Source: Eledone cirrhosa
Taxonomy: Eukaryota
DNA length: 64,000 nucleotides
Assembly: GCA_964016885.1 (NCBI GenBank)
Contig: OZ024742.1
Location: forward strand, 266,104,001 to 266,168,000
Direction: 5' to 3'
Shown here in pieces: positions 23,003 to 34,980 of this stretch. The notes beneath the pieces are model-generated. The model was not told where the DNA came from. It did no database searches and was given only the letters and a program-made list of their open reading frames with translations. Positions within the stretch are counted from its first letter, which is position 1, and every line of letters starts with the position of its first letter. The position numbers and the translations under genes are program-made.

Positions 23003-23596
23003 TATATATATATATATATCATATATATATATATATATATATATCATATATATATATATATATCATATATATATCATATATATATATATATATATCATAT
23101 ATATATATATATATCATATATATATATATATATATATATCATATATATATATATATATATCATATATATATATATATATATCATATATATATATATATAT
23201 ATATCATATATATATATATATATATCATATATATATATATCATATATATATATATATATATCATATATATATATATATATCATATATATATATATATATA
23301 TCATATATATATATATATATATCATATATATATATATATATATATATCATATATATATATATCATATATATACCATATATATATATATCATATATATATA
23401 TATATATATATATCATATATATATATATCATATATATACCATATATATATATATCATATATATATATATATATATATATATCATATATATATATATCATA
23501 TATATATATATATATATCATATATATATATATCATATATATATATATATATCATATATATATATATATATATCATATATATATATATATATATATA

Positions 23597-23647
<51 letters not shown>
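23003..23647. repeat. (TA)n array interrupted by ATC units
   Basis: TATCATAT units every ~12-24 nt; reads GAT(AT)n on the minus strand. Confidence 0.92.
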
Positions 23648-23648
<1 letters not shown>

Positions 23649-26600
23649 TTTCGCCAATCCACCGCTGCTTCAATTATTTCTATGATGTACTCATGTAAAT
23701 CGTAAAGTACAAATTCTTCTCTCCATTCCACGCTCAATTTCGTACATAGTCCAAACAAACATCCAATCTCGCAAAATCCGAAATCTGTATTTTTTTGTTA
23801 TCTATTTAAGGTTTAAATACGGTGTTTTTGTCGTATTGAACAGAACAAATCTTGCAGTTTTGCTTTTTGTTAAATCGCTGTTAAACATTCATAACCTTCC
23901 AGCTAGCTACCCCACACCCCTCCCTCCCGCCCCCACACACCACCATACTTAATACGTGGACCAATCATAAGCCAGAGCCCCCCCCCCCCCCCCCCCCCCC
24001 CGCATCACCACCATTATTATAAGCCAGAGCCCCCCACCCCCACGCATCACCATTATTATTATTACGCGGACCAAATCATAAGCCAGAGGCCTATACTATC
24101 GCTTGCCCGGTTGCCTTCGATATATGATGGATGGATGGATGGACGGACGGACTGCGGAATCCTGGAGAGTGGAAGGGAGAGAAAAATCTGGACGCCCAGA
24201 GCGAAAATGCCAAAGTTAAAGTCAAATTCACCTCGTGGACGAGAATGCGAGCACTCCTCTTTGTTTCGTTCGCGGATGGCTAACATAACCCTATCTCCTC
24301 CCGCCCCCCACCCTCCAAACGCAACCCAAAACTTCAGAGTTGGTACCATAAATGTAGGCACCCTAAAGGGTCGCGCTAACGAGGTTGTAGAAATGCTTGA
24401 ACGTAAGGAGGTCGATGTTTGTTGTATTCAAGAGACCAGGTGGAGGGGTGGGTCTGCTAGATTCATTGAGGGTAAAAAACGATGTTATAAGCTTTTCTGG
24501 GTGGGAAACGACGATGGGCTGGGTGGAGTAGGAATCATGGTAGCAGAAAAGTGGGCAGATATGATAATAGACGTAAATAGAGTGAACGACAGAATAATTA
24601 AAATAAGACTTGTCCTCAATAGAACTACGGTGACAGTAATATCTGCGTACGCACCCCAATCCGGACTGCCCGGCACTATAAAAGACAGATTCTATGAGAC
24701 ACTGTTGCTAACTACCTCCCAAATATCTGACAGTGACTATATAATTATTGCAGGCGACCTAAATGGTCACGTTGGACAACATTGTGACGGCTACGACGAA
24801 ATCCATGGAGGCTATGGGTTTGGTACTAGAAATGAGGAAGGCTCCAGAATCCTGGAATACTGTGATGCAAATAACCTAACTATCTGTAACACTAACTTCA
24901 AAAAACGTGACAATCACCTGATTACCTATAGATCCGGGGAACACACAAGCCAGGTAGATTATATCCTTACCAGAAGACGTGACAGAGTGTCTGTTGTAAA
25001 CACTAAATCCCTCCCCCATGAAGAATGCACCTCCCAACATAGACTGATAATTAGCGACCTCATAGTCAGGACGAGACGTACCCGACAGCAGAAGAGGACT
25101 ATCCTCAGGAGGAAAATATGGAAACTAAAGGACCCCACAGCCAGAAATAAATTTCAAAGCATATTACTTGATGCTTTCGACAGTAAGGAAGAGCATCTAG
25201 AATCGGACAATATAGAGGGACAGTGGAAATTTCTGAAAGCAAACCTGCTGTTGGAGACAGACGAAGTCTGTGGCTGGAGCAGGCCTGTAGGCAGGAGGAG
25301 AGTAACATGGTGGTGGAACAATAGGGTGGAGGGGTCAATTAAGGCCAAAAAGCAGGCTTGGAAAGTATGGCGGGATGGGGGAAGTAGAGTAGACTATCAA
25401 GTGGCCAGGAGGGAAGCTAGGAGAGAAGTGTACTTAGCAAGAAGGGAAGCTGAGGAAAGAAAGTTCAAGCATGTTCTACAACGCGATGACCAAAAACGTG
25501 AGGTGTTCAGGATTGCCAGGCAATGCGTCAAGGAAAACCGTGATATTGTCGGGGAGAAGTGTGTACTTAACGATGATGGCATACTTGCCATCACCGACAC
25601 TGATAAGAAGGTAGCTTGGAAGTGTCACTATGAAAGGCTACTAAATGAGGAGAATAAATGGGAGAAAGACAGTCTCCCCCATATCGACCCGATAGAGGGA
25701 CCAGCAGTGTTAGTCGAGGGGAGTATAATAAGTAAGGCAATCAAGGATATGAAGACTGGTAAGGCGGCTGGGCCTTCGGAAATAGTTGCTGAGATGCTGA
25801 AGGCATCTGGCACGGTGAGACACACCATGGTCACCCGCATAGTTAACCAAGTCGTACAGAATGGGGTTGTTCCGAAGGACTGGCATAGCAGCATCATCGT
25901 TAACTGTTATAAGGGTAAAGGAGACGCCCTAGATAGGAGTAACTATAGAGGCATTAAATTAATCGACCAGGTCATGAAGGTCACGGAAAAAGTAATAGCG
26001 CAACTAATCAGAGAGAGAATTGATCTAGATGAAATGCAGTTCGGGTTTGTGTCAGGCAAAAGCACCACAGACGCTCTTTTCATAGTACGACAACTACAGG
26101 AGAAGTACCTAGCTAAAGGTAAACCCCTCTACTTAGCTTTTGTCGACCTGGAGAAAGCTTTCGACAGAGTCCCCCGCTCCATTATCTGGTGGGCTCTTAG
26201 AAAACTAGGCGTTGACGAATGGCTTGTGAGGGCTATACAAGCCATGTATAAAGAAACAGTCAGCAAGGTTAGAATTAACAACGAATATAGTGAAGAGTTT
26301 AGCGTAAAAGTTGGCGTCCATCAGGGCTCTGTTCTCAGCCCCCTACTATTTATTATTGCCCTTCAGGCTATAACAGAGGAGTTCAAGACAGGCTGCCCAT
26401 GGGAACTCCTATACGCAGACGACCTGACACTCATAGCGGAATCAATGGCCGAGCTAGAGAAGAAATTCCAAACATGGAAGCACGGCCTAGAGTCAAAAGG
26501 ACTTAAAATTAACCTGGCTAAGACCAAAGTTCTAGTTTGTAGGAAAGAAAACAAGGCGGCGGTCCCTTCTGGGAAATGGTCGTGCTCGGTATGTAGGAAA

Positions 26601-32520: not shown

Positions 32521-32552
32521 ATATATATATATATATGATATATATATATATA

Positions 32553-32608
<56 letters not shown>

Positions 32609-32619
32609 TATATATATAT

Positions 32620-34980
32620 AACGTGAGGTGTTCAGGATTGCTAGGCAATGTGTCAAGGAAAACCGTGATATTGTCGGGGAGAAGTGTGTACTTAATGATG
32701 GTGTACTTGCCATCACTGACGCTGATAAGAAGGTAGCTTGGAAGTGTCACTACGAAAGGCTTCTAAATGAGGAGAATAAATGGGAGAAAGACAGTCTCCC
32801 CCACATCGACCCAATAGAGGGACCGGCAGTGTTAGTCGAAGGTAGTATAATAAGTAAGGCAATCAAAGATATGAAGATGGGTAAGGCGGCTGGGCCTTCG
32901 GAAATAGTTGCTGAGATGCTGAAAGCCTCTGGAACGGTGGGACACACCATGGTCACCCGGATAGTAAACCAAGTCATACAGAATGGGGTTGTTCCGAAGG
33001 ACTGGCGTAGCAGCATCATCATTAACTGTTACAAGGGTAAAGGAGATACCCTAGATAGGAGTAACTATAGAGGCATTAAATTAATCGACCAGGTCATGAA
33101 GGTCACGGAAAAAGTTATAGCGCAACTAATCAGAGAGAGAATTGATCTAGATGAAATGCAGTTCGGTTTTGTGTCAGGCAAAAGTACCACAGACGCTCTT
33201 TTCATTGTACGACAACTACAGGAGAAGTACCTAGCTAAAAGTAAACCCCTATACTTAGCTTTTGTTGACTTGGAGAAAGCCTTCGACAGAGTCCCCCGTT
33301 CCATTATCTGGTGGGCTCTTAGAAAACTAGGTGTTGACGAATGGCTTGTGAGAGCTATACAAGCCATGTATAAAGAAACAGTGAGCAAGGTTAGAATTAA
33401 CAACGAATATAGTGAAGAGTTTAGTGTAAAAGTTGGTGTACATCAGGGCTCTGTTCTTAGCCCCCTACTATTTATTATTGCCCTTCAGGCTATAACAGTG
33501 GAGTTCAAGACCAGCTGCCCATGGGAACTCCTATACGCAGATGATCTAACGCTCATAGCTGAATCAATGGCCGAGCTAGAGAAGAAATTCCAAACATGGA
33601 AGCATGGCCTAGAATCAAAAGGGCTTAAAATTAACCTGGCTAAGACTAAAGTTCTAGTTTGTAGGAAAGAAAACAAGGCGGCGGTCCCTTCCGGGAAATG
33701 GCCATGCTCAGTGTGTAGGAAAGGCGTAGGTAGAAACTCCATTTTATGTCCCAAATGCAAAGTATGGGTGCATAAAAGATGTAGTGCGATCACAGGTAAG
33801 CTAACTAAGAACATAGATTTTACATGTGGCCGGTGCTCTGGTGCAATAAGTAGCAGCAAGTGCCCACAGAATACTAGCTCATTCCATTGCACAGATGGTT
33901 CTATAGAAATAGTGGACACCTTCCGTTACTTGGATGACAAAATCAGCAGTGGTGGAGGGTGCTCCGAAAGTACAGTAGCTAGAGCCAGAACGGGATGGAA
34001 AAAGTTCAGAGAGCTTATACCACTATTGGCCGCTAAAGGGTTCTCACTAAAAATGAAAGGCAGGCTGTATGATGCCTGCATACGAACAGCAATGTTGCAT
34101 GGTAGTGAGACCTGGGCATTGTGTGCAGAGGATATACGCAGACTGGAGAGGAACGAAGCTTGCATGCTACGCTGGATGTGTAATAGTAATATACGTGAAC
34201 GGCAAAGCATAAACGAACTAAGGGAGAAATTATGAATAAGAGGGATCAGATGCTGTTTACTCGAGAGAAGACTACGTTGGTACGGGGTCATGATGCGCAT
34301 GAAAGACGACAGCTGTATAACAAAGTGCAGGGCAATAAAGATAGACGGTAGCTACGGAGTAGGCAGACCCAGAAAAACCTGGGACGAGCTGATAAATTCG
34401 GACCTCACACACTTACACCTCTCCAAGACAATGTCACTGGACCGAGACCTTTGGCGGTACTCAGTAATAGAGAAGACCCGCCTTACCTAAATACAAAGTA
34501 AAACCTATTACAGTCAGCAGGCATCTCTAACAAAATACACCCCTGTCCCACCACCCCATCCACACCGCCCCTTTCAATGTAAAGTTATGTTGGTGCCACA
34601 ACATCCAGGCCGAAGCAAATGAGATCGTGTAGGTGTCACAACAAAAAAACACACAGTCCACGCTGTAATGTGGCCATGTAGGCTACACGGTAAAAACCTC
34701 CCAGGCCCACACTGTAAATGTGGTTGGTGTTAGGAAGGGCATCCAGCTGTAGAAAACTCGCCAGACAGCCCACGCTGTAATGTGGCCGTGTAGGCAACAT
34801 GGTAAAAACCTCCCAGCCCCACACTGTAAATGTGGTTGGTGTTAGGAAGGGCATCCAGCTGTAGAAAACCCGGCAGACAGTCCTATGCGAGCAAGACAAT
34901 CACTCTTGCCTCAAGTGGGAAAACCCCCGTCCAAACCCATGCAAGCGTGGAACACGGACGTTAAACGTTGATGATGATGA

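Follow-up and report, generated by a model that had tools for sequence, protein, structure and literature searches.

Probable targeting of punctuated TA arrays by an RTE-like LINE family, and a TA minisatellite probably split by its insertions in Eledone cirrhosa

About a dozen truncated relatives of one long interspersed element (LINE), belonging to two subfamilies, and a single copy resembling a short interspersed element (SINE) are clustered at 21.7–38.8 kb of the window analyzed here, a 64-kb stretch of the Eledone cirrhosa genome (G000:C3:266104001-266168000, contig OZ024742.1; assembly of 3.0 Gb in 1,796 contigs). The TA tracts between these copies total 3,183 nt and are punctuated by GAT, ATC, or ATGGTA units. 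An earlier note on this DNA had proposed that the arrays grow from the GAT-repeat tails of the copies and become the targets of the next insertions. We find that the structure is real and that its causality is mostly reversed. The LINE family probably targets punctuated TA arrays actively, and the cluster is best read as a pre-existing, partly inverted TA minisatellite split by the dozen or so insertions. The GAT-punctuated arrays of the window likely predate most of the copies.

The most complete copy (23648–27736) carries a single open frame (23907–27380, with ATG codons at 24135, 24207, and 24276) that matches PF03372 (APE endonuclease), PF00078 (reverse transcriptase, RT), and PF00628 (PHD finger). 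It ends with a complex 3′ untranslated region (UTR) of ~335 nt and a (GAT)n tail. A single open reading frame (ORF) with APE endonuclease and RT and no ORF1, a short-tandem-repeat 3′ tail, and frequent 5′ truncation (median body length of 464 nt in the 170 copies flanked by TA at both ends) are features of the RTE clade. We call the family RTE-like, a label drawn from this anatomy and from general knowledge of the clade rather than from an RT tree. The ORF has 301 relatives, the best at 53% identity, and its domain set is common to many of them; no named RTE reference is among the relatives listed. A PDB search returned, as relatives, only L1, R2, and group II intron RTs. The 3′ UTR is present at high copy number in the short-read contigs of four sequencing runs. 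Twenty public runs, from 17 organisms, contain at least one fifth of the words of window positions 26400–27715, which makes it likely that related species also carry the family. A 112-bp tandem duplication of the 3′ UTR (window 34653–34880) recurs in L025, L029, L299, L302, and L319, and a 99% identical copy at L309 (1585–5007) has an inverted 5′ part and a GAT array on both sides. Subfamilies A and B share ~76% identity in the 3′ end. The features of the cluster are the following, in window coordinates.

21314–21682 (+): TA minisatellite punctuated by ATGGTA (9 forward, 2 inverted); presumed left end of the ancestral array
21683–22075 (+): 5′-truncated LINE copy, subfamily B, (GAT)7 tail; an ATGGT-TA remnant comes next (22076–22088)
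22089–22578 (+): 5′-truncated subfamily A copy with a short tail
22578–22765 (+): direct duplicate, 188 bp long and 97% identical, of the SINE/LINE junction found at 28092–28279; brackets the ATC-polarity block
22803–23002 (−): 200-bp 3′-end copy, its truncated 5′ end abutting the left end of the ATC array; overlooked in the earlier note
23003–23647: TA array with 28 ATC and 3 TACCAT units and zero GAT; presumed inverted part of the ancestral array
23648–27736 (+): near full-length single-ORF LINE, (GAT)7 tail at 27716–27736; ATC/TACCAT array on both flanks
27737–27799: right remnant of the ATC/TACCAT array, one internal ATC and one TACCAT
27800–28104 (−): short SINE-like element with the 3′ end of the family and a (GAT)5 tail; 5′ part cut off by the next copy
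28105–28526 (+): 5′-truncated LINE copy, (GAT)4 tail
28527–29050: GAT(AT)n array of 26 GAT units and 2 ATC; its unit triplets recur non-randomly
29051–29468 (+): truncated A copy inside the GAT array, GAT units on both flanks
29469–30125: GAT array, 30 GAT and 1 ATC; substitution-type interruptions mark repeated blocks
30126–31042 (+): truncated B copy inside the GAT array
31043–31665: GAT array, 34 GAT and 1 ATC
31666–32470 (−): young A copy (99.4% identity with the full-length LINE); its tail faces an array of opposite polarity, a counter-example to tail polarity
32471–32619: mainly pure TA, 2 GAT and 1 ATC
32620–34984 (+): truncated A copy with the 112-bp duplication in its 3′ UTR, then pure (AT)18
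35021–36192 (+): composite B/A fragments, (GAT)8 tail at the end
36193–36233 (+): ATGGTA-punctuated TA remnant; right part of the presumed ancestral array
36234–38817 (−): truncated A copy, its tail facing the ATGGTA array with opposite polarity; 5′ flank TA at 38818–38845

The SINE label of 27800–28104 comes from the flanks shared by such elements at other loci, and the 188-bp duplicate that brackets the ATC block is a probable sign of local rearrangement at the DNA level. Unit counts agree with the punctuation that the earlier note had described at 23003–23647, 28527–29050, 29469–30125, and 31043–31665. Its assignment of 32471–32619 to the GAT arrays is weak, with two GAT units versus one ATC, and its ATC segment at 27737–27799 comes down to the two units listed. 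The full-length LINE does sit within the ATC array, and the copies at 29051, 30126, 31666, and 32620 landed within the GAT array. As also described, tails outside TA tracts (52849 and 60102) have no array, and the TA tract after 47865 contains zero GAT units.

Genome-wide, TA follows the tails. Counting overlapping pattern matches and not loci, as in all genome-wide figures below, a tail followed by (AT)8 occurs 23,543 times versus 228 for the mirror control. Among 38 copies picked solely by 3′ UTR similarity (40 hits minus the window's own copy and one other), 31 have TA directly after the tail and seven do not; the TA baseline is 12.9% of positions in ten arbitrary 10-kb stretches (100 kb). 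Arrays of at least 100 nt are present in 16 of these 38 close copies, with many different units, and none of the 38 tails is followed by three or more GAT units.

The flanks of the copies indicate which came first. We examined 402 tails, of which 291 have a resolved 5′ end (checked by hand at 16 loci with long copies) and 81 have punctuated arrays on both sides. The dominant unit is identical on both flanks in 47 of these 81, a set to which pattern-selected loci, two copies from the window, and some near-duplicate rows belong; 2,000 shuffles gave a mean of 8 and a maximum of 16. TA lies on both sides of 170 of the 291 resolved copies, a set chosen in part for TA downstream. Each of the youngest long copies (L190, 99.8%; L193, 99.6%; L309, 99%) is located mid-array, with its own local unit on both sides. 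Nor is the 3′ flank the longer one: it is longer in 37 and the 5′ flank in 41 of 85 cases (P = 0.92), and in the 150 copies that TA borders on both sides it is, if anything, the 5′ flank that is longer (84 versus 65, P = 0.017). A pre-existing microsatellite on both flanks is what a microsatellite-targeting retrotransposon without long terminal repeats (non-LTR) leaves. Arrays confined to the 3′ side, with tail-templated units shared among close copies, as expected of arrays grown from tails, were not found in these sets. Transduction of a donor array at the 3′ end was rejected, as near-identical copies have unrelated arrays that match their own 5′ flanks.

A further set of 91 tails has one G or C unit next. 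Where a multi-unit G array follows, GAT units are present upstream also in 13 of 16 resolved cases, a count that takes in two copies from the window, one duplicated locus entered as two rows, and L314, where just one unit lies upstream. C arrays have upstream units in 8 of 10. One-sided arrays exist in both polarities, G at L303, L311, and L317 (L314 nearly so) and C at L150 and L324.

The GAT punctuation itself does not follow the tails. In the window, with each tail read on its own strand, six arrays match the polarity of the adjacent tail and three do not (P = 0.51), and the strand agreement described in the earlier note is not consistent. Opposite-polarity arrays follow the tails at 27736 (+), 31666 (−), and 36234 (−), and the tail at 34984 is followed by pure TA. 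The mismatching copies had been treated as later arrivals; the same logic applies to the copies ending at 29468 and 31042, since GAT units lie on either side of each. We also collected 40 GAT arrays with a pattern as the sole criterion; they come from 38 loci among the first 100 matches listed, of 136. Only three begin at a same-strand tail (two scripted, and L098 by eye) and four have an opposite tail at their end; in some of the others, the seeding tail could be masked by an insertion that came later. Single units of the mirror AGT are commoner than GAT (22,133 versus 11,764), as are runs of three (452 versus 136) and four (255 versus 69), an excess of 2- to 3.7-fold for a unit that no tail supplies. 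A (TAG)n-tailed element as the source of AGT arrays was rejected, given only 228 matches for a mirror tail followed by TA. Very near the tails, TACA units dominate the interruptions among the matches listed (100 of 2,001). Outward growth from tails as a rule, which would have been surprising, thus fails genome-wide.

In the window, a second marker, missed in the earlier note, joins the arrays. All 17 ATGGTA-type motifs of the 64 kb lie within 21353–36217, both in the outer tracts (21314–21682, 22076–22088, and 36193–36233) and, inverted as TACCAT, inside the ATC array and its right remnant. The two-unit version is rare, with 169 matches genome-wide. We infer that 21.3–36.2 kb is one ancestral array, split by insertions, in which the ATC block was inverted. 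Because the marker joins this region into one array, the five polarity-matching arrays are not independent. Flips of polarity need no element, since 14 of the 40 GAT arrays elsewhere contain both polarities, with at least five units each, in one element-free tract. ATGATA differs from ATGGTA by a single transition and shares a block with it, and the GAT unit possibly derived from ATGGTA by this change. Unit triplets repeat beyond chance in 28527–29050 (P = 0.0002) and 31043–31665 (P = 0.019); unit order is thus non-random in two of the five window arrays and borderline in one, as expected under DNA-level duplication.

These data suggest a mechanism in which the endonuclease would nick within TA runs and the GAU repeats of the RNA would prime on AT ends through microhomology. 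Each insertion would undergo variable 5′ truncation and probably duplicate ~15–21 nt of target. Target-site duplication (TSD)-like matches are present in 45 of the 291 copies, 23 of them 15–21 nt long. A dozen duplications of this size would supply less than a tenth of the TA of the cluster. Of the proposed feed-forward loop, only a weak form survives, in which each insertion would add its TSD and the array would expand by ordinary means. Replication slippage and template switching in self-complementary TA are the means by which TA arrays lengthen and invert. Here, they would grow by duplication of any interruption present, and their polarity flips would arise through such template switching. 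By a minor route, an abortive tail-only insertion or a junction duplication would add GAT units that DNA processes amplify, which likely explains a small GAT excess after tails.

That excess is one of several observations that weigh against this interpretation. The unit after a tail is GAT in 158 cases versus 79 for ATC (P = 3e-7), in less than 1% of tail-TA junctions. TGTA and TACA interruptions after tails number 2,085 and 2,519, with no G-strand excess (the two patterns are not exactly symmetric), and on these counts a general G-strand orientation bias was rejected. The 2:1 GAT excess together with this absence of a general one argues that tails contribute something specific. The GAT arrays of 28527–32619 contain no ATGGTA, so their tie to the ancestral array is only indirect, through the mixed ATC block. 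The two central copies, at 27800 (−) and 28526 (+), each face outward, toward an array that has the polarity of the copy. Higher-order structure is non-significant in 21314–21682 and 29469–30125 and borderline in 23003–23647. TSD lengths come from 45 of 291 copies whose periodic flanks allow chance matches. Finally, no empty allele was seen.

Part of this evidence would suit a tail origin of the GAT unit of the window, by junction duplication or tail-only insertion beside 28526 or 27800, followed by slippage and by the arrival of later copies. This reading, possible although we think it unlikely, is compatible with the targeting of pre-existing arrays in all but where the unit came from. In pure TA, bodiless (GAT)3 has 149 matches versus 3 for the mirror. 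As element bodies shorten gradually to ~32 nt, we read these bodiless tails as insertions truncated to the tail alone. Six of the 18 bodiless loci inspected are arrays without an element body at their start (L210, L211, L214, L218, L219, and L223), made of (GAT)1–8(AT)n units and sometimes mixing one, two, and three GATs; L210 (G000:C7:3684340-3685810) has 58 units and a polarity flip at its end. Tail–TA–tail duplications at L106, L117, and L118 and the 2:1 excess after tails also favor seeding. Conversely, single-G units need no tail, as the more abundant AGT shows, ATGATA is one transition from the local ATGGTA within one block, and one-sided arrays are found in both polarities. Tail seeding is likely real, rare, and followed by ordinary amplification. 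Tail-derived GAT units do enter TA tracts, as the earlier note had suggested, at a small fraction of junctions. Stray tail-only insertions likely seed a few GAT arrays elsewhere, and seeding may have supplied the unit at the window locus, which does not require it. Bodiless tails show how new units of minisatellites can be seeded when insertions fail. At L212 (G000:C1:45.108-45.116 Mb), a multi-kilobase GAT/ATC array contains repeated tiny back-to-back 3′-end fragments that form palindromes; these fragments were duplicated and inverted together with the array.

Passive accumulation is an improbable alternative. Here, copies would insert at breaks in, or survive within, fragile cruciform-forming TA tracts with no endonuclease preference. 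AT/TA repeats are described as fragile sites in PMC12972899 and PMC11797062, TA runs make up 9.3% of arbitrary sequence, the seven close copies without TA fit, and other repeat ends border these arrays as well. Even the youngest copies lie in arrays, and some copies have TSD-like flanks; both observations fit selection at insertion better than later sorting, and break-driven insertion is still compatible with both. We regard active targeting as likely and insertion at fragile TA breaks as less so.

We consider it equally doubtful that the LINE machinery makes repeated, abortive attempts on one TA tract, with every attempt leaving either a bodiless (GAT)k tail or only a 15–21 nt target duplication. 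It would thereby write and lengthen punctuated minisatellites (e.g., L214, L223, and L210), set their period, and enlarge its own target. Repeated unit blocks are present in L210 and L219 and none were found in L211, L214, L218, and L223, where repeated abortive events are therefore possible. Still less probable is that the RT writes arrays at insertion by telomerase-like re-priming on the TA target, one of the routes that the earlier note had envisaged. The heterogeneous (GAT)k(AT)n units of L214 and L223, which show no repeated higher-order pattern, and a modal unit length of 17–21 nt in the window, overlapping the inferred TSD length, would suit it. Against it stand the 38 close copies with no GAT array, the lack of a 3′ length excess, the matching unit on the 5′ flank, the unrelated locus-specific arrays on both flanks of near-identical young copies, and repeated unit blocks indicative of DNA duplication. 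Finally, a long-read consensus artefact is hardly credible: unit order is known from the assembly alone, but systematic error is an unlikely source of locus-specific units that agree on either side of kilobase insertions and retain rare markers and higher-order blocks.

At many loci, TA arrays are bordered by the ends of several other recurring repeats (ends of GAT arrays, L061–L098), so other repeat families likely use the same landing pads. The window contains compound TA/CA/CATA arrays at 43669–45570 and 47865–48610, which flank B copies at 44266 (−) and 45572–47865 (+); we read 43669–48610 as a second landing pad with different units. Further elements of the window are a fragment of another LINE, beginning at a TA run (38818–39561, +) with a weak DUF6451 match, a broken RT gene of another non-LTR family (55674–57392, +; RVT_1, 1e-22), and a 267-bp two-copy tandem repeat (58878–59418). 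Two related-looking ORF remnants lie at 12113–14128 (+), with no Pfam match, and 48841–49437 (−), with a weak GIY-YIG match (E = 8e-5). We take both to be probable Penelope-like elements.

Insertion into pre-existing microsatellites is known for the APE-type non-LTR retrotransposons Waldo (ACAY), Mino (AC), Kibi (TC), Koshi (TTC), and Dong (TAA), as listed in PMC3812793. The present LINE is alike in this respect and differs in its target, (TA)n, and in its loose targeting (31 of 38 copies). In that 2013 list, the (TA)n target is assigned to DNA transposons only (Micron). PMC4640811 places most target-specific families in the early-branched, Tx1, and R1 groups, unlike the RTE-like anatomy seen here. 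RTE-clade LINEs are described as having a single ORF with endonuclease and RT, a microsatellite tail, and many 3′ fragments (PMC2887409, PMC6007223, PMC9115989). Their tails are known microsatellite sources (PMC2887409), and base pairing between tail and target has been proposed to influence site choice (PMC6007223). In these descriptions, the microsatellite is the tail itself, lying between TSDs, whereas here the copies lie inside TA arrays. The signature given in PMC6007223 is a T-stretch ~10 nt upstream of the TSD or nick, and not a (TA)n array. RTE-2_OV, as described in PMC9115989, has a C2H2 finger and a microsatellite 3′ UTR, in contrast to the PHD finger and complex 3′ UTR of the present LINE. 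We found no TA-targeting RTE-like LINE in the open literature, a coverage that excludes Repbase, subscription journals, and supplements, and the family may already be annotated. Close parallels are the Mutator-like MuTAnT, Micron, and TAFTA elements and the SaTar arrays, for which TA microsatellites serve as landing pads (PMC4486113, PMC5907723). These sources describe modular arrays of unrelated elements with microsatellite between them and TA enlarged at occupied sites. As such enlargement is reported at MuTAnT, TAFTA, and SaTar sites, the feed-forward idea has a precedent. Those are DNA transposons, whereas the element here is a GAT-tailed retrotransposon that lies in punctuated arrays of kilobase length, its copies being partly nested. 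If active targeting is true, the simplest self-complementary microsatellite serves an RTE-like LINE as a landing pad where insertion does no harm, with more than 23,000 tail-TA junctions. This would explain the interleaved LINE/TA blocks of the genome and add (TA)n to the few targets of microsatellite-directed retrotransposons.

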